Below are positions 27,463-61,410 of a stretch of DNA of 64,000 nucleotides, in pieces (position 1 is the stretch's first letter; every line of letters starts with the position of its first letter). The position numbers and the translations under genes were made by a program. The stretch is from the sequence record MN850603.1. One strand, given 5' to 3'. Origin of the DNA: Escherichia phage pinkbiff. Below the pieces are notes generated by a model. It was given only the letters and a program-made list of their open reading frames with translations, ran no database searches and was not told the DNA's origin.

Positions 27463-27612
27463 TGTACGTCAGAGACATACTGTATAAGTCTTCCTATAAA
27501 GTATAACTCTGTAAAAAAGCCCTGTCTAAAAATACTCTTCGGTAGCGAAAGGAAGAATACTTATAGCAGGGCATTATTATTATTTTAATTGAGAGAGAGT
27601 AAAATAACTTGG

Positions 27613-27685
27613 AGAATCCGAAGGGACTTGAACCCTTATAAACCTGTTTTGCAGACAGGCACATAGCCATTTCTGTCACGGATTC
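27613..27685 (-). tRNA. tRNA-Cys (GCA)
   Basis: hand-fold: acceptor gaatccg/cggattc, T-arm aaggg-acttgaa-ccctt, anticodon stem cctgt/acagg with loop reading GCA, discriminator U73. Confidence 0.7.
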
Positions 27686-27692
27686 AAATTGG

Positions 27693-27782
27693 AGGAAGAT
27701 ACCAGACTTGAACTGGTACACCGATTTCTCAGCTACTGGCAGTTTAGCAAACTGCTCCCTTACCTTTTAGGGTTAATCTTCC
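27693..27782 (-). tRNA. tRNA-Ser (GCU), long variable arm
   Basis: acceptor ggaagat/atcttcc, T-arm accag-acttgaa-ctggt, anticodon stem gcagt/actgc, about 90 nt. Confidence 0.65.
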
Positions 27783-27783
27783 A

Positions 27784-28509
27784 TTATTTCTGCAATGCGT
27801 TCTTCATTTCTGGTGTTGCAATAGAATCGATTACACCAGTTTTACAAGCATCATCAAACCAGTCTGGTAAGATACCTGCTAAGAACCCATTGATATTCGT
27901 TTTAAGGTACTCTGCAATAAGGGCAGCTTCTTCTTCAATCATCTGCACAACTTCATCTGCATAAGCTGTAATCTTTGAAATACCTTCATTAATCTTACTA
28001 ACAGCTTGGTTAGCTAAATCAGAAATAGTATCAAGACCTTTATCAATAGCATCCTGTAAGTCACTTAACACATCATTAACACCATCTAGTGTACTGTTAA
28101 TCGTATCCATAGCTTTTTGACCATACTCTGTAGCAACACCCATAATACCACTAAACGGTGTACAGCCAACTTGCTCTCCTGCTGCACCCATAACATTGGA
28201 ATAACCTTTTGCTACCTGCATACGTGATGAGAACTCATCAATGGACTTTTGACCGTAATCTGTCAGCGTCTTAGTAGTTGATGTAGTGCTTGTCAGACTC
28301 GTTGTAAAGCCATTAAGCAGAACTGTTGTAAGTCCAGCAGCAACAAGCTTATCCTTTACTGTAGGGTCTGATACAGAGCTAATAGAGTTTACAAGTGATG
28401 TAGAGGCAGCTACGGTTCCACCGAGAACTGCTGCACCAGTAATAAGGGGATTAGAAAACCCTCTACCGGTTTTTAAGAGATTGAAAATCTCCTTACCTTG
28501 TTCTGTCAT
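27784..28509 (-). CDS. hypothetical protein embedded in tRNA island
   Basis: ORF fits exactly between tRNA-Ser (ends 27782) and tRNA-Phe (starts 28538); ORF track extends to 28581 through the tRNA, so the internal ATG at 28509 (MTEQGKE) is preferred; S/T/G-rich. Confidence 0.35.
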   Translation of the reverse strand: MTEQGKEIFNLLKTGRGFSNPLITGAAVLGGTVAASTSLVNSISSVSDPTVKDKLVAAGLTTVLLNGFTTSLTSTTSTTKTLTDYGQKSIDEFSSRMQVAKGYSNVMGAAGEQVGCTPFSGIMGVATEYGQKAMDTINSTLDGVNDVLSDLQDAIDKGLDTISDLANQAVSKINEGISKITAYADEVVQMIEEEAALIAEYLKTNINGFLAGILPDWFDDACKTGVIDSIATPEMKNALQK

Positions 28510-28537
28510 CTCTTTCATTAAGCACCTTTGAAATTGG

Positions 28538-28611
28538 TAGTCCAGTGGGATTTGAACCCTATTCTCATGTTTTTCAGACACGCGCTTTAACCATATAAGC
28601 TACTTGGACTA
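28538..28611 (-). tRNA. tRNA-Phe (GAA), fold imperfect
   Basis: anticodon stem with loop CUGAAAA, D-arm GCUU/AAGC, T-loop motif present but T-stem and acceptor pairing ambiguous by hand. Confidence 0.45.
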
Positions 28612-28620
28612 TAAATTGGG

Positions 28621-28692
28621 GTGACCTACGGGATTTGAACCCGTATAGACCATGTTCACAGCATGGGTCATTACCATTTATGATAAGGCCAC
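28621..28692 (-). tRNA. tRNA-His (GUG)
   Basis: acceptor gtgacct/aggccac (one G-U), T-arm acggg-atttgaa-cccgt, anticodon stem ccatg/catgg, C73. Confidence 0.7.
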
Positions 28693-28726
28693 ATTTAAGG
28701 CCTCTCGTAAGAACCCTTAGAAGTGG

Positions 28727-28799
28727 CAGCGGCATAAGGATTTGAACCTTAATAGGACAGCTTCAGAGACTGCTGCATTGCCAGTTATGCTATACCGCT
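28727..28799 (-). tRNA. tRNA-Gln (CUG)
   Basis: encoded CCA, T-arm taagg-atttgaa-cctta, anticodon loop CUCUGAA, G73. Confidence 0.65.
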
Positions 28800-28807
28800 A
28801 AATTTGG

Positions 28808-47462: not shown

Positions 47463-47735
47463 TTATACTAAATGCAGTTTTTTACCTTTTACTATGATGT
47501 AACTTGATGCGCTATTACTTTGCACATCTTGATAAATTCTACGCAAACGGCCTTTATAGTATACTTTCCAACTGGTTGGAATCTTTTTCCCGTATCCTGT
47601 AGCAGTTTTTTGCAGTCCTGCAAGTTGCCAATCTAAGATATGTTGTTCGGCTTGTAAATCCTCGAAGTGCATTACACCGTTCACATAGTGACGAAGGGTT
47701 ACGTTTAAGGTGCGACCGTTGTTAGTAGTATACAT
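47463..47735 (-). CDS. hypothetical small protein (cassette-array gene)
   Basis: 90 aa; ATG follows variant-A cassette. Confidence 0.5.
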   Translation of the reverse strand: MYTTNNGRTLNVTLRHYVNGVMHFEDLQAEQHILDWQLAGLQKTATGYGKKIPTSWKVYYKGRLRRIYQDVQSNSASSYIIVKGKKLHLV

Positions 47736-47805
47736 TTTGAATCTCCTAGTTTAAGGACTTTGTTTAGTGGGGAGGTCATTACCTCCCGTTGATTAGTAAT
47801 TTACT
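47736..47805 (-). repeat. intergenic cassette, variant A
   Basis: conserved leader plus GGGGAGGTCATTACCTCCC hairpin. Confidence 0.6.
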
Positions 47806-48443: not shown

Positions 48444-48535
48444 TTTAGAATCTCCTAGTTTAAGGGCTTTATTTGATAAATCTCTTTATCTGGGGCTATC
48501 CTACCAGCTTGATAACCCCGTGTAAAGAAATCTAT
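48444..48535 (-). repeat. intergenic cassette, variant B (divergent)
   Basis: conserved SD/leader plus GGGGCTATCCTACCAGCTTGATAACCCC hairpin. Confidence 0.55.
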
Positions 48536-49427: not shown

Positions 49428-49500
49428 TTTTGAATCTCCTAGTTTAAGGGTTTTTATTTAGTGGGGAAGTCATTTCCTCCCCGTTGATGCAAATACTAGA
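49428..49500 (-). repeat. intergenic cassette, variant A
   Basis: conserved leader plus GGGGAAGTCATTTCCTCCCC hairpin. Confidence 0.6.
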
Positions 49501-49683: not shown

Positions 49684-49880
49684 TACCTGCACCCACCTAC
49701 CTGCACAATTCTAAAATGATTTTTCTTGCCCGACCTGATTTTTCTCTGCACGTTTTGAAAATGAAAAAGCTCTTTGGAGATTACCTGCACAGTTTGAAAA
49801 TGAATTTTCTCTTTGGAGTTCAAAATTCTCTCTACAGATTTCTCTATAGAAATATACCTGCACAATTCTGAAATGAAAAA
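49684..49880. repeat. direct repeats (CCTGCACA-N-TT-N-TGAAAATGA, at least 4 copies) upstream of cassette array
   Basis: copies near 49699, 49746, 49783 and 49855, plus tandem CCTACCTGCAC x2 at 49684-49706 and CTCTTTGGAG x2. Confidence 0.55.
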
Positions 49881-49949
49881 GCCCTCCTTACCTGAAAAAT
49901 TTACCAGATAAGAAAGGCTTAGTCTATTGTGAGTATTTTACAGAGTTTC

Positions 49950-50735
49950 TTAGTTCTTTGCGTCTAAGAAGGTAAGCTCTGGTGAAGAGAAGATTAACTC
50001 GATATCCTCATCAGTTCTCGCATAGATATAAGTATCTGCATCACTGCCAAATGTTACTGCAATCCTGTGATTGCTCTTCGACAGGTGGGTAACTAGAGCG
50101 TTACTTAGAGACATCTTTTCAACCGGAGGGTTACTTTGATGTATCTTACCTTTTCTTCGTCTGAAAAGGGTAACTGCATTATCCGTGAACACTGCTACAC
50201 CTGCAAAGTATTCTGGTTCACAGTAGTTCTTCCAACCTGAGAGTAACTTGTGGTACATCTCTCCTTCATAGACATACAGATAAACATCTACACTCTTCAT
50301 GACCTGATTGATGATAACTGTGACAGCTTGAGGGTCGAGTCCACCGATACCTGCACCAATCATAGGTAGACCGACTTTCTTCAACTGGTTAACTTCACAG
50401 TATCTGTTAAGCTGTTTCAAAGATGACTCTAAAGCACTGTATCGTGCATCTTTACCAGTCTTAAGCTGAGTGTAAAGGTTAGCTATACGGCCTTGTTTTA
50501 AACGTGCTACAGAGGAATTACCCAGTAAATTTTCACAGGGTTTGTGTCCTATACCACCTGCATATAGATAAACTTCTGTATCGGTCTCATATGCTTTTGG
50601 GTAAAGTTTAGAAATCTTGTCAGCGATACCTGCACCCATTAAATTCATACAGTTGCAACCGTGACCGATGATGTCAAACTTACCTTTATCAAATGCGGAA
50701 AAGATATCACCGTTGATAATTTTTACAATACCCAT
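49950..50735 (-). CDS. macro-domain protein (TARG1/OARD1/DarG-like ADP-ribose hydrolase fold) with unknown C-terminal domain
   Basis: 261 aa; N-terminal GDIFSAFDKGKFDIIGHGCNCMNLMGAGIADKISKLYP matches the GDLF..HC....MGAGIA signature of TARG1/DarG-type macrodomains. Confidence 0.55.
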   Translation of the reverse strand: MGIVKIINGDIFSAFDKGKFDIIGHGCNCMNLMGAGIADKISKLYPKAYETDTEVYLYAGGIGHKPCENLLGNSSVARLKQGRIANLYTQLKTGKDARYSALESSLKQLNRYCEVNQLKKVGLPMIGAGIGGLDPQAVTVIINQVMKSVDVYLYVYEGEMYHKLLSGWKNYCEPEYFAGVAVFTDNAVTLFRRRKGKIHQSNPPVEKMSLSNALVTHLSKSNHRIAVTFGSDADTYIYARTDEDIELIFSSPELTFLDAKN

Positions 50736-50736
50736 A

Positions 50737-50937
50737 CTAATAATGCTCCCAACGTTGCATGTCTTCGGATGGTTTTACACGGTTACCCTCATGGTCTACA
50801 TAACCTGCACCACAACCTTCACAGATAACTGGCATAGCTGAACCAGCTTCAAACTCTTCTTTGGTGAAGAGACCTTTCAAGTCCCCTGTATCAACACCAA
50901 AATGTTCTATTGCACACTTCTTGCAGAAATCAGCCAT
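50737..50937 (-). CDS. small zinc-ribbon protein
   Basis: ORF opens at 51027; ATG at 50937 (MADFCKKCAIEHFG) has AAGAGG RBS; CKKC ... CEGC pairs. Confidence 0.45.
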   Translation of the reverse strand: MADFCKKCAIEHFGVDTGDLKGLFTKEEFEAGSAMPVICEGCGAGYVDHEGNRVKPSEDMQRWEHY

Positions 50938-51157
50938 GAATAATTGCCTCTTGAATGATGATACCTTTACCACAACGGCTTTTAAAGTCTTCCAATGGTT
51001 GGGAGATGAAGCCACGCAAGCAATCACTAAATACTAAGTTTTTCCTGTAGGCTATCACATCGTTTGCTGTAAACGGGATGACTTCATTTCTTCCAATGAA
51101 TACTGCTGACCGGATGAGTTTCCGTGTCTTTTTATCTCTGGCTAGAATTACTCTCAT
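50930..51157 (-). CDS. hypothetical small protein
   Basis: 75 aa; overlapping arrangement with neighbours. Confidence 0.35.
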   Translation of the reverse strand: MRVILARDKKTRKLIRSAVFIGRNEVIPFTANDVIAYRKNLVFSDCLRGFISQPLEDFKSRCGKGIIIQEAIIHG

Positions 51158-52764: not shown

Positions 52765-53460
52765 TCAATGTTTAACTAACATGGTTTTGATGTGTGGAAG
52801 GATTCTATTCACTTTCTGCACATTCTTCTCTGTATCTTCTATAAAACATACTATATTAAAGTAAGGCAGAATGCAAGACTGAATCATCCTCACTTTCAAA
52901 CTTTCTGCACTTATAGAGTTAGTTCCAAAACCACGCATAAAAAGCATATAATCATGCTCTGTGTTATGCCTTAAAAACATCTCAGTAGGTATTCTCTGAG
53001 ATTCGCCTCTCGCTGTCAAGAGTCCAACGGCAGCATGATTAGCAATTGCATCAATGATATTGAAAACATACGTTGGTTTTGCTCTTACAGAGTCAAGAAG
53101 ATTAGTGTACTGTGAAAATGAACCATCAGTCAATTCCGTTGAACAATCTTCGTGATTAAAATTTGTAAGAACTCCATCAATATCTGCTAAGATAAGATTA
53201 CCTTTCTCTACAAGGTCTTTGTTGACTATGACTAAACTATCACGTTTTACACCTATGGATTGTCCAGTCTCTTTGTCCACAACGTTCACAATTGGTTCTG
53301 ATGTGTGGAACTCTTCAAGTGAACATACAACTTCTCTTGCGGTGTCTTCAAAATCCCTGCACTGTTCTGGAGTCCATACACAGGAATCAAGACCTAACTC
53401 ATGAGGGTGTAAGTCATAAGCATGGCACAATACTTCATCAAACTTTCTTAATTTTTTCAT
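52765..53460 (-). CDS. HAD-superfamily hydrolase-like protein (putative nucleotidase/phosphatase)
   Basis: 231 aa; motif-I-like LADIDGVLT (DxDGV). Confidence 0.45.
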   Translation of the reverse strand: MKKLRKFDEVLCHAYDLHPHELGLDSCVWTPEQCRDFEDTAREVVCSLEEFHTSEPIVNVVDKETGQSIGVKRDSLVIVNKDLVEKGNLILADIDGVLTNFNHEDCSTELTDGSFSQYTNLLDSVRAKPTYVFNIIDAIANHAAVGLLTARGESQRIPTEMFLRHNTEHDYMLFMRGFGTNSISAESLKVRMIQSCILPYFNIVCFIEDTEKNVQKVNRILPHIKTMLVKH

Positions 53461-58217: not shown

Positions 58218-59999
58218 TTAAAGCTGCTTGTCAATATTATTTCGAATATCCCCAAGAGTTGTGTAACCGAACTGCTCAGAGTCACTAAAGACTAAACGTA
58301 AGGCACAAGCTGGGTGGTCAAGTGCATCTGCAAAACTCTGGAATCCATAGCCATCTACAGCTTTCAGCTTATCACCATCCCACATGGGTGCTACACCACC
58401 AAAAGCAGATTTCTTAACACCACTATCTGTTTTAGGGTCTTTTGCAAGCATAATCTCTTTACCACCAATGCTTGCAAGAGTTGCTTTGACAGCAAATGCA
58501 AAGGTGTCACGAGTCATGTACTGGTAAGTGTAAGAACCTACACCAAACACTACGTTAGAGCTTGCAAAACCCATTTCATACAGACGCTTCAGGATTTCGT
58601 TTGCACGTTCCAGCGTGATAGAGTCACCATAGATAAGTCCGATATGCTCATCCAGTACCTTAAACCCTTTAGAGTTAATAGTTCCCCCAAAGATGTTGTA
58701 CAGTGTCTTAATAGCTCCATCAATCTCAGCTACAGGACGTGTTACAACGTTTGCAGAACCAACCATATAAGTGTTTTTCAACAGCACTGTATCAGCAACT
58801 TCAAAGTCTTCTCTGTCAACAACCATTTCGTAGCCTTCTGACAGTAGCCATCCAGCAATACCATAATTGATGTTTTCAAGCTTCATGTTCAGAACAGCAT
58901 TCAACATTGTGTCGCTGGCTTCAAGCTTGCTTAAGTGTTCGTAATAAGCCTTTTTAGCACATTCTAAGTGGATTGCTTTATAACCTGTGACAATATGTAC
59001 AGGGTCTCCAGAGTCAGGACGAATTACCAGTTTGCCATCACGTTCCATAATTTCTTTACGAAGTGCTGGTAAAATTTCTGACACAGTTCTCCAGAAGTTA
59101 TAAGTGTCTGAAACAACACTTGCAATACCAGTTGGGTAAGTTTCTGTTAAGAAACGACGGAAGGTTTGTAACTCACCTTTAAAGCGTCTTTCTTCTTCAA
59201 TCAACTCATTACCACCTTCCCAAGCAATGTTTGCACACATTACAGAATGTTCCGTGGCTGGTACAGAACTGCCAATATCAGAGATTGGGTAAGACTGCCC
59301 ATAGATTCGTTTAGCCGTGTATACAGCAGGGAAGCTATCAGTTCCTTTAAAGCTGGTTAAGTGGCCTACAGCATTGAATGCGTCATCAGTAAAGCCTGAC
59401 ATACCACGCATAGCAAAGTCATGGCACTGATAAGGTAAATGCAAGTCATTGTCACAAGTAAGGTCAGCCCACTTCTTACAGATACGCTTGTAGTGCAATG
59501 CAATAGTAGCAATGGTGCAAGCTTTCCAAATCTCAGCAGAGAAAGCATCCTCCAGATACCCTGCTACCCAATGGAAACCTGAAACAGTGTTCTGGAAGAC
59601 AATCATTGGGACACGCATCGGGACAACTGTGCCTTCTTCTACAGCGTATACTTCAACTGGTAGATAACCTAAGTCGTGAAGTGCTTCCCAATGCTCTCGA
59701 CCGATAGCATCTTTACCCAGAACACCATTCATAACTTCTAAGATTTTGTCAATTGCTTCTTTTTTATCACGTTCAAAGAAAGTGGCGTTCCAGTGGTCTA
59801 TCAAGTAATCTTTAACAAAACGTTGAATACCAAAAGCCACTACACCATCAATTGCTAAGGGGCTGTTAAACCATTTATCACTACGTGGTGTCAGGTTCAA
59901 CATAAGATATTGCGTAGCATCTGGATACTGATATATATGTGATGCCTTGTAAGCATCTGCATTAAGACCTGCTGGTACTGCGTAAAGTGACTTACTCAT
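58218..59999 (-). CDS. nadV: nicotinamide phosphoribosyltransferase-family protein (NadV/NAMPT-like; possibly Namat-type)
   Basis: 593 aa; type II phosphoribosyltransferase features of the NAMPT family; near a Prs-family gene. Confidence 0.75.
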   Translation of the reverse strand: MSKSLYAVPAGLNADAYKASHIYQYPDATQYLMLNLTPRSDKWFNSPLAIDGVVAFGIQRFVKDYLIDHWNATFFERDKKEAIDKILEVMNGVLGKDAIGREHWEALHDLGYLPVEVYAVEEGTVVPMRVPMIVFQNTVSGFHWVAGYLEDAFSAEIWKACTIATIALHYKRICKKWADLTCDNDLHLPYQCHDFAMRGMSGFTDDAFNAVGHLTSFKGTDSFPAVYTAKRIYGQSYPISDIGSSVPATEHSVMCANIAWEGGNELIEEERRFKGELQTFRRFLTETYPTGIASVVSDTYNFWRTVSEILPALRKEIMERDGKLVIRPDSGDPVHIVTGYKAIHLECAKKAYYEHLSKLEASDTMLNAVLNMKLENINYGIAGWLLSEGYEMVVDREDFEVADTVLLKNTYMVGSANVVTRPVAEIDGAIKTLYNIFGGTINSKGFKVLDEHIGLIYGDSITLERANEILKRLYEMGFASSNVVFGVGSYTYQYMTRDTFAFAVKATLASIGGKEIMLAKDPKTDSGVKKSAFGGVAPMWDGDKLKAVDGYGFQSFADALDHPACALRLVFSDSEQFGYTTLGDIRNNIDKQL

Positions 60000-60013
60000 A
60001 TTTTATCTCTCTC

Positions 60014-60505
60014 TTAGTTATGTCTTGCAAACTCACCATGAAGTTCTATTCGCTTTTTAATTACAGCTTCTTTTGCTTCTTCTACCGTTTTAAATCTTCC
60101 ACAAAAGTATTCTTTATGGTAAAGCATGACTCTTGCTTTGTAAAGACCTGTTTGTTTACAAAAACTTACACCCTTCACACCAGTTTTATTATTCTTGTAT
60201 ATACCCCTATTCCTCTGATTTTGTGACTTTGTGCTAAGTCTTAAATTCTCCAACTTATTATTAGATTTATCAAGGTCTATGTGGTCTATCTCATATCCAC
60301 TTGGTATCTCACCTCCAGACATAATCCATGCAATATTATGTGCATAGTACCTCTTCTTATTTATCTGGACTTGGATATAACCCTTCTTAGACCTTGTGCC
60401 AGCAACATTACCAGCAATAGCGGTATTGCAAAGGGTTACTTTCCAAATTAGTAAACCTGTCTCCGGTTCGTATATTAGGTATTTTTCGAAGTAACCCTTA
60501 TCCAT
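60014..60505 (-). CDS. HNH homing endonuclease with AP2 DNA-binding domain
   Basis: 163 aa; HNH_3-type core (GYEIDHIDLDKSNNKLENLRLSTKSQN) followed by AP2-like segment (GVKGVSF..GLYKARV..GRFKTVEEA); inserted between nadV-like and prs-like genes. Confidence 0.7.
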   Translation of the reverse strand: MDKGYFEKYLIYEPETGLLIWKVTLCNTAIAGNVAGTRSKKGYIQVQINKKRYYAHNIAWIMSGGEIPSGYEIDHIDLDKSNNKLENLRLSTKSQNQRNRGIYKNNKTGVKGVSFCKQTGLYKARVMLYHKEYFCGRFKTVEEAKEAVIKKRIELHGEFARHN

Positions 60506-60513
60506 TTTAATAC

Positions 60514-61410
60514 CTAATCCAAATTTGCTACAGTAACTTGACCATAATGTGTTAAGCCACGGTCTTTAGCTTCGCCTAAAGAGTTTGTAGTGTAAATATG
60601 GTCGATACCATTGTCAAGAAGGTTTTCAACATCTTTAGAGAAGATACCATGTGTTACATAAAGTTCCACACGTTTTGCACCTGCTTCACGAAGATGCTTA
60701 GCTGCTTCTATGAAGGTTCGACCACCATCACAGATATCATCCAGAATCATGACGGTTTTATCTGTCAAATCAACATCATCAAGGATTCGCATACCAGTAA
60801 TTTCACCAGTCTTAAGGTTACGCACCTTAGACATTGTGATATATGGTTTATCCACCTCTTTAGCGGTCTCTGCAACCTTCTTAGCAGCACCTGCATCTGG
60901 GGCTACTAAGTAATCAACCAGTGGGTCATTTGCATAGTGGACTGCAATCTCCTTTTGAGGAATACTCTGGAAGCAGTTAAACAGGTTATCTGGTACATAG
61001 CTGTGAGGGTCAACTGCACAGACTGCACCAAACCCCATTGCATTAACCTGTTTAGCAAAAACCTTCAAAGCTGCTGCATCACCTTTAAACATGTGACGGT
61101 CATATCGTGCATTTGGTAAGTAGTAAAAGATGACAGTCTTTAAGGCATAATCATGAGGAATCAAATCATCAATTGCTTCTTTAGCAAGTGCCACAGCAAA
61201 CAATGTGTCCTTGTCGTAGCCTTTTACAATCATAACCACATTGTTAATGGAGGATGCTGCATAAGCAGTAAAATCAACTAGCTCTTGTGAAAAGTGTCCA
61301 CCAATCTCACCAGAAGGGAATTGAATGATGTTAAACTCTTCTTCATGAGTTCCTTTAGTTGGTGAATGAATTGTAACACGGATAGATGTTTTCATAGTTT
61401 TCTCTCTCAA
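60514..61410 (-). CDS. prs: ribose-phosphate pyrophosphokinase-family protein (Prs-like; possibly Adps-type)
   Basis: 298 aa; PRPP-binding loop VMILDDICDGGRTF and overall Prs-like layout. Confidence 0.75.
   Translation of the reverse strand: MREKTMKTSIRVTIHSPTKGTHEEEFNIIQFPSGEIGGHFSQELVDFTAYAASSINNVVMIVKGYDKDTLFAVALAKEAIDDLIPHDYALKTVIFYYLPNARYDRHMFKGDAAALKVFAKQVNAMGFGAVCAVDPHSYVPDNLFNCFQSIPQKEIAVHYANDPLVDYLVAPDAGAAKKVAETAKEVDKPYITMSKVRNLKTGEITGMRILDDVDLTDKTVMILDDICDGGRTFIEAAKHLREAGAKRVELYVTHGIFSKDVENLLDNGIDHIYTTNSLGEAKDRGLTHYGQVTVANLD

Follow-up and report, generated by a model that had tools for sequence, protein, structure and literature searches.

A two-domain macrodomain protein of the Poa1p-like AdfM/Adpp family in Escherichia phage pinkbiff, a probable counter-defence enzyme

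Background

Escherichia phage pinkbiff (sequence record MN850603.1), of which we analysed a stretch of 64,000 nucleotides (hereafter the window), carries a gene for a protein of 261 amino acids (aa) made up of an N-terminal macrodomain and an orphan C-terminal domain (Table 1). Macrodomain proteins with roles against host defences were described in 2025-2026 as AdfM in phages T4 and PhiKZ and as Adpp in Vibrio phages, so that the idea of a counter-defence macrodomain is no longer new. Since orphan-antitoxin and NARP1-helper macrodomains have been published for its relatives, the protein reported here does not represent a categorically new finding. What is new is that it belongs to a distinct clade, that it carries the orphan C-terminal domain, that one genome holds both a T4-AdfM-like macrodomain and a complete NARP1, and that the catalytic lysine of DarG and TARG1 is absent throughout the AdfM/Adpp family.

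In T4, the gene tk.4 was the sole significant hit of a transposon screen on DarTG2 by HIDEN-SEQ, and a clean knockout of tk.4 rendered the phage sensitive to DarTG2. The gene was named adfM, for anti-DarT factor macrodomain; according to the preprint, protection was shown genetically, and the protein was proposed to take ADP-ribose off DNA enzymatically (10.1101/2025.11.20.689424). The AdfM of PhiKZ (gp104) is DarG2-like, and its orphan anti-DarT2 antitoxin activity was shown enzymatically. Its K78 corresponds to K80 of the Thermus aquaticus DarG (TaqDarG), and we took the identities of the catalytic lysine and asparagine from the same source (PMC13309987).

A second line of work concerns aRES, a RES-domain defence that splits nicotinamide adenine dinucleotide (NAD+) into nicotinamide and ADP-ribose 1''-phosphate (ADPR-1''-P), a product that NARP1 cannot use. 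Some phages hold within their NARP1 operon a Poa1p-like macrodomain, Adpp, described by the Sorek laboratory. The purified Adpp of Vibrio phage Gary converts ADPR-1P into ADP-ribose (ADPR) in vitro, NARP1-AP needs Adpp to beat aRES, and the primer table lists H24A as the inactivating mutation (10.64898/2026.01.28.702374). Vibrio phage Chester displays the same Adps-macrodomain-Namat operon, with a macrodomain that differs little from Gary Adpp. In the passages searched of the two preprints, we found no mention of Adpp in the HIDEN-SEQ study and none of T4 AdfM in the aRES study.

Fold and family of the macrodomain

As a member of the Poa1p-like AdfM/Adpp family, the pinkbiff protein is very probably an ADP-ribose C1'' hydrolase with an accessory role against host defence. 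By sequence comparison and structure prediction its residues 1-157 are a macrodomain, with a match far beyond chance. The Pfam family Macro (PF01661) matched aa 25-141 with 32.6 bits (cut-off 22, E=8.4e-8), and PHROG 335, a family named "phosphatase", matched aa 1-260 (E=9e-112). We modelled the whole protein with AlphaFold2 from an alignment of 28 sequences, and the model reached a mean predicted local distance difference test (pLDDT) of 91.5 and a predicted template-modelling score of 0.89. It displayed the alpha/beta macro fold with glycine-rich ADP-ribose-binding loops, of which MGAGIA and IGAGIGG are conserved. In Foldseek searches the model matched TARG1, Poa1p, and T. aquaticus DarG at probability 1.0 with target template-modelling (TM) scores of 0.77-0.87; TARG1 was the best fold (0.86), followed by TaqDarG (0.84) and Poa1p (0.77). 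The macrodomain assignment of a first-pass annotation, made from the sequence alone, was thus borne out both by profile search and by structure prediction, and the signature motifs that it had quoted are present as NGDIF (aa 8-12), HGCNC (aa 25-29), and MGAGIA (aa 33-38).

A family profile built from the same 28 sequences was compared with PDB structures. TARG1 gave the best match (5e-16), followed by Mycobacterium tuberculosis DarG (2e-15), Poa1p (2e-14), T. aquaticus DarG (6e-13), and SCO6735 (4e-12), while matches to AF1521, PARP14/15, and the alphavirus and coronavirus macrodomains had E above 1e-3. On profile and predicted fold, the domain belongs to the TARG1/Poa1p/DarG (ALC1-like) group and not to the MacroD/AF1521/nsp3 group.

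Relatives of the N-terminal domain were detected by tblastn in 2,789 of 50,697 phage records, and at least 80% of the protein was covered in only 256 records. These broad N-terminal matches, set against few full-length ones, show that the macrodomain is common while the two-domain form is restricted.

Active site

Residue conservation was read from an alignment of 28 homologues. Seventeen positions were invariant in all 28, including H25, N28, C29, N86, T89, Q90, and G127-A128-G129. In alignments with described enzymes, H25 is the counterpart of H24 of Adpp and H23 of Poa1p (whose H23A variant is entry 6lfs), and the invariant N28 is the counterpart of N22 of TaqDarG and N23 of PhiKZ AdfM. Meanwhile, HMMER and MAFFT alignments placed Q90 at the catalytic lysine site of TARG1 (K84), DarG (K80), and PhiKZ AdfM (K78), with the PhiKZ K78 lying opposite Q90, or one column off in two of three MAFFT runs. 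The family alignment held no conserved lysine at position 90 or 91, the latter being variable.

The likeness to TARG1/OARD1 (human, PDB 4J5Q/R/S) extends to GDLF, the H-C pair, MGAGIA, and equal loop length. However, the catalytic dyad K84/D125 of TARG1 is not kept, as the HMMER profile alignment places the invariant Q90 opposite K84 and G131 opposite D125, and TARG1 has a serine at the site of N28. Likewise, DarG2 (T. aquaticus, 5M31/5M3E; M. tuberculosis, 5M3I) and PhiKZ gp104 share with the pinkbiff protein the macrodomain class (target TM 0.81-0.84 for DarG) and the asparagine (N22/N23), and DarG is also a two-domain protein. Nevertheless, the catalytic lysine of the DarG2/PhiKZ type (TaqDarG K80, PhiKZ K78) is replaced by Q90, and the pinkbiff protein displayed neither the C-terminal DarT-binding domain of DarG2 nor a gene position beside darT. 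The first-pass annotation had placed the protein in the TARG1/OARD1/DarG clade and had named catalytic residues missing from an alignment as one finding that would speak against it. The placement holds for profile and fold but not for catalysis, as the TARG1 and DarG catalytic residues (K84/D125 and K80) are absent from the alignment, with Q90 and a glycine instead.

The histidine of the H-x-C-N-C motif is common to Poa1p (H23) and TARG1 and is not found in DarG-type sequences. Poa1p, the yeast ADP-ribose 1''-phosphate phosphatase (PDB 6LFQ-6LFU), shares the H-x-C-N-C motif and the short loop that follows the glutamine site, and was matched by Foldseek with E=8e-10. It differs in having a serine at the glutamine site of the family and some 20 additional residues in other places, it lacks a C-terminal domain, and it is a cellular enzyme that handles a by-product of tRNA splicing. 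Because H-x-C-N-C and T-Q are kept while the DarG/TARG1 lysine and the TARG1 aspartate are gone, the active site is, as judged from these alignments, of the Poa1p/Adpp type of ADPR-1''-P phosphatase and not of the DarG/TARG1 type. By the same comparison, T4 AdfM, Adpp, and the pinkbiff protein all lack the DarG/TARG1 catalytic lysine and have a glutamine instead. DarG and TARG1 need that lysine, and the three lysine-less proteins thus sharpen a mechanistic puzzle.

The missing lysine also raises the question of whether the protein might be an inert ADP-ribose binder, a sponge or reader whose hydrolytic activity was lost with the change from lysine to glutamine. The loss of the DarG/TARG1 lysine and of the TARG1 aspartate would agree with this, and non-catalytic macrodomains exist (PMC9503650). 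However, Adpp is active with the same glutamine, Poa1p is active with a serine at this site, and both H25 and N28 are invariant in the 28 homologues, which makes an inert binder very improbable.

Comparison with T4 AdfM and Adpp

The pinkbiff protein displayed 35% identity to T4 Tk.4 over aa 3-157 (79 bits, E=3e-23) and 29% identity to the Adpp of Vibrio phage Chester (56 bits, E=9e-15) in BLASTP searches. Between themselves, T4 Tk.4 (tk.4, L002:6923-7390) and Chester Adpp (gp175, L009:4001-4477) are 35% identical (E=1e-23). T4 AdfM shares with the pinkbiff protein the motifs HGCNC, MGxGxA, NLYTQ, and PxIGAGIG as well as the short loop past the glutamine, and each is encoded by an accessory gene in a virulent myovirus of enterobacteria. 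The two differ in that T4 Tk.4 is a single-domain protein of 155 aa, whereas the pinkbiff protein has an extra C-terminal domain of about 105 aa and falls in a clade of its own (bootstrap support 100%). The anti-DarTG2 role was shown genetically for T4 only. Adpp, for its part, belongs to the same family and keeps the essential histidine (H24, equivalent to H25), the asparagine, and the glutamine, and the pinkbiff phage also encodes Adps and Namat. On the other side, the gene for Adpp is part of the Adps-macrodomain-Namat operon, while the NARP1 pair of pinkbiff is found 7.5-10.7 kb upstream of the macrodomain gene; Adpp-type proteins have an aromatic insertion of 3-7 residues past the glutamine, mostly with HQxNC and YGQ, and have no C-terminal domain. 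To our knowledge T4 lacks NARP1, whereas pinkbiff carries it.

These differences were followed in an alignment of 31 sequences, which included 11 macrodomains adjacent to NARP1. All 11 displayed the aromatic insertion of 3-7 residues past the glutamine, most of them together with HQxNC or HVANC and with YGQ. The short loop, HGCNC, and YTQ were found in the pinkbiff protein, in all two-domain homologues, and in T4 Tk.4. The pinkbiff protein therefore agrees with T4 where most Adpp sequences differ, namely in HG-CNC versus HQ/HV, Y-T-Q versus Y-G-Q, and IGAGIG versus IGCGLA. As the loop length had predicted, the three short-loop proteins sampled were all away from NARP1, and the two with recognisable neighbours lay among replication or RNA-repair genes.

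The insertion is an empirical marker of this analysis and not a published criterion. Loop length was tried as a functional discriminator and rejected: in a blind test the protein P0027 had the insertion with no NARP1 within 5 kb, and the phosphatase Poa1p has a short loop, so that the marker is informative of clade only.

A neighbour-joining tree with 200 bootstraps, which gives no support values for deeper nodes, recovered the two-domain (Felix-type) proteins as a clade with 100% support, sister to the T4 type and Adpp type combined. Orthology to the T4 type was hence not obtained by phylogeny, as the Felix-type clade lies outside both characterised groups and the tree leaves the question undecided. 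As far as sequence comparison goes, orthology of the pinkbiff protein to T4 AdfM or to Adpp is not established.

Putative role against host defence

Among the candidate substrates, we tentatively rank DNA modified by DarT2 first, by analogy with T4 AdfM; this choice is compatible with an Adpp-like role. The macrodomain would bind ADP-ribose and hydrolyse whatever hangs on the ribose C1''. During infection, host DarT2 would ADP-ribosylate thymidines in single-stranded phage DNA, bringing replication to a stop, and the phage enzyme would strip the ADP-ribose from the DNA so that replication could resume, making the protein an orphan antitoxin.

Besides the secure fold and family, the T4 screen and knockout, and the enzymology of PhiKZ AdfM, several observations count for an AdfM-like role. 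First, T4 Tk.4 is nearer to the pinkbiff protein than Adpp is. Second, the pinkbiff protein has T4-type residues and the short loop, although this marker is weak. Third, the gene lies outside the NARP1 operon even though the phage has one. Fourth, other short-loop members are found among DNA replication genes. Finally, g95 of the Felixounavirus Bas63, which on gene order and its annotation as 'putative phosphatase' is probably the equivalent gene, appears expendable: its PhageMaP scores (approximately 0.6-1.1) are close to those of the dispensable g79 and g80, which is consistent with an accessory gene that is expendable on laboratory hosts.

Other observations weigh against DarT2-modified DNA as the substrate. 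An invariant glutamine replaces the lysine of DarG, PhiKZ AdfM, and TARG1, and it would fall to a lysine-less site to cleave the bond between thymine and ribose. The Felix-type clade is not inside the T4 type in the neighbour-joining tree. T4 Tk.4 resembles Adpp as closely as it does the pinkbiff protein, so that family membership leaves the substrate unsettled, and the histidine that is essential in the phosphatase Adpp is present as H25. A Namat-like gene is found upstream in pinkbiff and in all distant two-domain relatives examined. The net charge of the C-terminal domain is not consistently basic, and thus nothing points to DNA binding. We found no published DarTG2 test on a Felix O1-like phage, and the defence panel used on Bas63 holds neither DarTG nor aRES. 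The anti-DarT idea of the first-pass annotation thus remains reasonable, given that a T4 protein with 35% identity protects from DarTG2, yet the residues of DarG/TARG1 catalysis are missing.

The first-pass annotation had overlooked the NARP1 genes of the phage, in view of which an Adpp-like role deserves to be taken just as seriously. It is possible that the protein is an ADPR-1''-P phosphatase acting in trans with the phage NARP1 enzymes, and an AdfM-like role could exist alongside. In this scheme, aRES would make ADPR-1''-P, which Adps cannot use; the macrodomain would convert it to ADPR, and Adps and Namat would rebuild NAD+. The Adps-like (Prs-like) and Namat-like (Nampt-like) genes of the window (58218-61410) lie on the same strand as the macrodomain gene, 7.5-10.7 kb upstream of its start codon. 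The 2024 NARP preprint lists their FelixO1 orthologues in its supplementary tables as Adps and "Adps-associated" Namat. In Bas63, g79 and g80 are required against Sir2-HerA according to PhageMaP, and NARP1 is thus functional in this phage. In addition, aRES is known in E. coli, Klebsiella, Enterobacter, and Salmonella, with homologues found in all four. As to the protein itself, it is a homologue of an enzyme with this activity in vitro, the histidine replaced in the inactive H24A mutant is invariant, and the H-x-C-N-C motif, T-Q/S, and the short loop agree with Poa1p, whose ADPR-1''-P phosphatase activity is confirmed. The gene order Namat-like gene, rIIA, rIIB, HAD-like gene, and macrodomain gene is maintained in two distant homologues with both domains, whose macrodomains show 32-35% identity.

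The joint presence of macrodomain and Namat-like genes could be mere whole-genome synteny of related phages. Moreover, about ten genes separate the Namat-like gene (ending at 58218) from the macrodomain start (50735), which places the latter outside the NARP1 operon. The protein also lacks the aromatic insertion present in all NARP1-adjacent macrodomains of our alignment (an imperfect marker), resembles T4 Tk.4 more closely than Adpp, and has an extra domain of 100 aa of no obvious use to a small-molecule phosphatase. In the aRES study, macrodomains were counted only up to two genes from NARP1, and Table S1 contains no Felix or Salmonella phages (10.64898/2026.01.28.702374). In the window, the macrodomain gene is not within two genes of Adps and Namat, so that this limit would have missed it.

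A Poa1p-like enzyme could alternatively serve in RNA-repair housekeeping, clearing the ADPR-1''-P released by a 2'-phosphotransferase of the Tpt1/KptA type during tRNA repair, as yeast Poa1p does; this would not be counter-defence in the strict sense. The Poa1p-like fold and motifs and the 26 tRNAs of the phage would agree with such a function, as would a HAD-like gene that is syntenic with the macrodomain gene and whose orthologues display weak PNKP-type similarity, and a short-loop relative beside a T4-type RNA ligase 1 with PNKP nearby. According to PhageMaP, Bas63 gp107 also bears a slight structural likeness to the NAD-binding domain of Tpt1. Nonetheless, sequence searches of the neighbouring open reading frames (ORFs) scanned detected no Tpt1/KptA, RNA ligase, or 2H phosphoesterase; the HAD-like ORF of the window has no Pfam match, and the likeness of gp107 is 'slight' in the words of its authors. 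We therefore consider this function improbable. A Tpt1/KptA-like partner of the gp107 type was also looked for among the downstream ORFs, where Pfam and PDB sequence searches came back empty.

The short-loop relative is P0020, from a metagenomic T4-like contig (L016:3352-5504), where it lies one gene downstream of the T4-type RNA ligase 1, with PNKP and a Dda-like helicase in the vicinity. This context fits an RNA-repair reading of the macrodomain family.

Finally, the substrate might be another conjugate or signal. Candidate activities include de-ADP-ribosylation of RNA (for example mRNA modified by CmdT-type enzymes) or of protein, deacylation of O-acetyl-ADP-ribose, and breakdown of immune signals built on ADPR, such as His-ADPR or the cyclic ADPR isomers of Thoeris-type systems. 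The clade is promiscuous, with TARG1 deposited as both an O-acetyl-ADPR deacetylase and a terminal ADP-ribose glycohydrolase, and some GenBank records call the phage gene O-acetyl-ADP-ribose deacetylase. A survey by the Aravind group holds that phage macrodomains mainly target soluble ADP-ribose derivatives (PMC9503650), and Johannesman et al. suggest that counter-defences that remove ADP-ribose may also face RNA-ADP-ribosylating systems. However, none of these activities is known from the family, two members of which have other experimentally supported roles, and the database names are automated annotation transfers. This makes a substrate of this kind unlikely.

C-terminal domain

The first-pass annotation had left the last 110 or so residues unassigned, and they stayed so, as aa 158-261 (about 105 aa) gave no Pfam match. 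In the full-length model this domain is predicted with block pLDDT values of 82-92. When modelled alone it returned the same topology, six strands and a helix, at a pLDDT of 74.8. No Pfam family, no PHROG family beyond its own, and no PDB relative was found for it; in BFVD the only match was its own family, from phage SUSP2. A search of 1.84 billion representative proteins returned only members of the two-domain family, their fragments, and spurious repeat proteins. Two-domain fusions occur in Felixounavirus, Mooglevirus, SUSP2, and several metagenomic lineages, and by these searches the domain is an orphan confined to Ounavirinae-like fusions. Its net charge ranges from -5 to +4 among homologues. 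An origin as a fused neighbour gene was considered and rejected, since hhalign comparisons with T4 Tk.3, T4 Vs, and the upstream zinc-ribbon ORF gave at most 0.15% probability.

We propose that this domain could be a targeting or partner-binding module, analogous but not homologous to the DarT-binding domain of DarG. In a bolder and rather unlikely version, the protein would be a bifunctional hub: its lysine-less Poa1p-type site would both strip DarT2-type ADP-ribose and dephosphorylate ADPR-1''-P, the freed ADPR would be turned into NAD+ via NARP1, and the C-terminal domain, a new partner-binding fold, would dock on DarT2, on the replisome, or on Adps/Namat. If true, an orphan antitoxin with two domains would have arisen by convergent evolution, and its mode of catalysis would be unlike that of DarG.

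Among the cases examined, only the Felix-type clade combines a T4-AdfM-like macrodomain with a complete NARP1 within a single genome. It thus offers a natural system in which to ask whether one enzyme serves against both DarT2 and aRES, or how specificity divides. The orphan domain is a small and tractable target for structure and interaction studies. Felix O1-like phages are widely used in typing, biocontrol, and therapy of Salmonella and E. coli, and their counter-defence genes bear on host range.

Gene, locus and genome setting

On sequence identity the window belongs to a Felixounavirus: a 3 kb segment with the macrodomain gene at its centre is 91-95% identical to many genomes of this genus. 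The protein is 98.5% identical to gp13 of Salmonella phage FO1a (tblastn). Deposited names of the gene differ and include "phosphatase", "O-acetyl-ADP-ribose deacetylase", "macro domain-containing protein", and "hypothetical protein". Coordinates of the features are given in Table 1.

Table 1 Features of the macrodomain gene and its surroundings in the window (aa, amino acids; ORF, open reading frame)
Feature	Position	Strand	Description or basis
Macrodomain protein, complete coding sequence	49950..50735	minus	ATG at 50735, 261 aa and stop (ORF list); orthologue of Felix O1a gp13, probably also of Bas63 g95
Macrodomain, aa 1-157, Poa1p-like Tk.4(AdfM)/Adpp family	50265..50735	minus	Pfam Macro, PDB profile, AlphaFold2/Foldseek, BLASTP
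H25-G-C-N28-C29 motif	50649..50663	minus	Invariant in 28 homologues; alignments
MGAGIA loop	50622..50639	minus	M33, G36, A38 invariant; common to TARG1, PhiKZ AdfM, T4 Tk.4, Adpp; role according to PMC9503650
N86-L-Y-T89-Q90 motif	50466..50480	minus	N86, L87, T89, Q90 invariant
P124-M-I-G-A-G-I-G-G132, second glycine-rich loop	50340..50366	minus	G131 opposite TARG1 D125
Orphan C-terminal domain, aa 158-261	49953..50264	minus	Predicted linker helix, six beta strands, short helix
Shine-Dalgarno GGGAG	50746..50750	minus	10 nt 5' of macrodomain ATG, read from sequence
Terminator-like hairpin with T-run	49879..49920	minus	About 30 nt past macrodomain stop codon; consensus scan only
Zinc-ribbon ORF, 66 aa, CxxC...CxxC	50737..50937	minus	Stop 1 nt before macrodomain ATG; own AAGAGG ribosome-binding site
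HAD-like ORF, 231 aa, DIDGV motif	52765-53460	minus	No Pfam match for the window copy
Namat-like (Nampt-like) gene	58218-59999	minus	Pfam; BLASTP to Chester Namat 37%, E=9e-107
HNH_3 homing-endonuclease ORF	60014-60505		Splits Adps-like from Namat-like gene; Pfam
Adps-like (Prs-like) gene	60514-61410	minus	Pfam; BLASTP to Chester Adps 38%, E=2e-35

The terminator-like hairpin past the stop codon suggests that the macrodomain gene is probably the last of its transcription unit. The zinc-ribbon ORF directly upstream may be translationally coupled to it; its membership of the system is uncertain, as it is kept at 71% in one relative (L008), weakly in a second (L007), and not in a third (L006). 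In record PP948675 this ORF is not annotated, and an overlapping ORF of 75 aa in another frame (window 50930-51157) is given there. Orthologues of the HAD-like ORF in distant relatives, where it is syntenic with the two-domain macrodomain gene, displayed weak or faint matches to PF25109 (HAD_PNKP). The distant relative L012 has an HNH gene as well, directly past its Namat-like gene.

Two kinds of repeats were observed near the gene. Just downstream of the terminator-like hairpin, the intergenic region 49690-49890 contains four copies of a motif of about 20 nt (minus strand, CATTTTnAAnnGTGCAGGTA), 35-85 nt apart, which could be regulatory or promoter-like. In addition, a conserved leader of about 31 nt (minus strand, CCTTAAACTAGGAGATTCAAAA, then ATG) precedes three successive small genes, at 47735-47787, 48444-48474, and 49428-49481, with a GGGGAGG...CCTCCCC hairpin before the leader at two of the three sites. 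These leaders look like a repeated intergenic-signal cassette of the early region. Elsewhere in the window, on the minus strand at 27610-32782, a cluster of 26 tRNA genes is mixed with small ORFs, as is typical for Felix O1-like phages.

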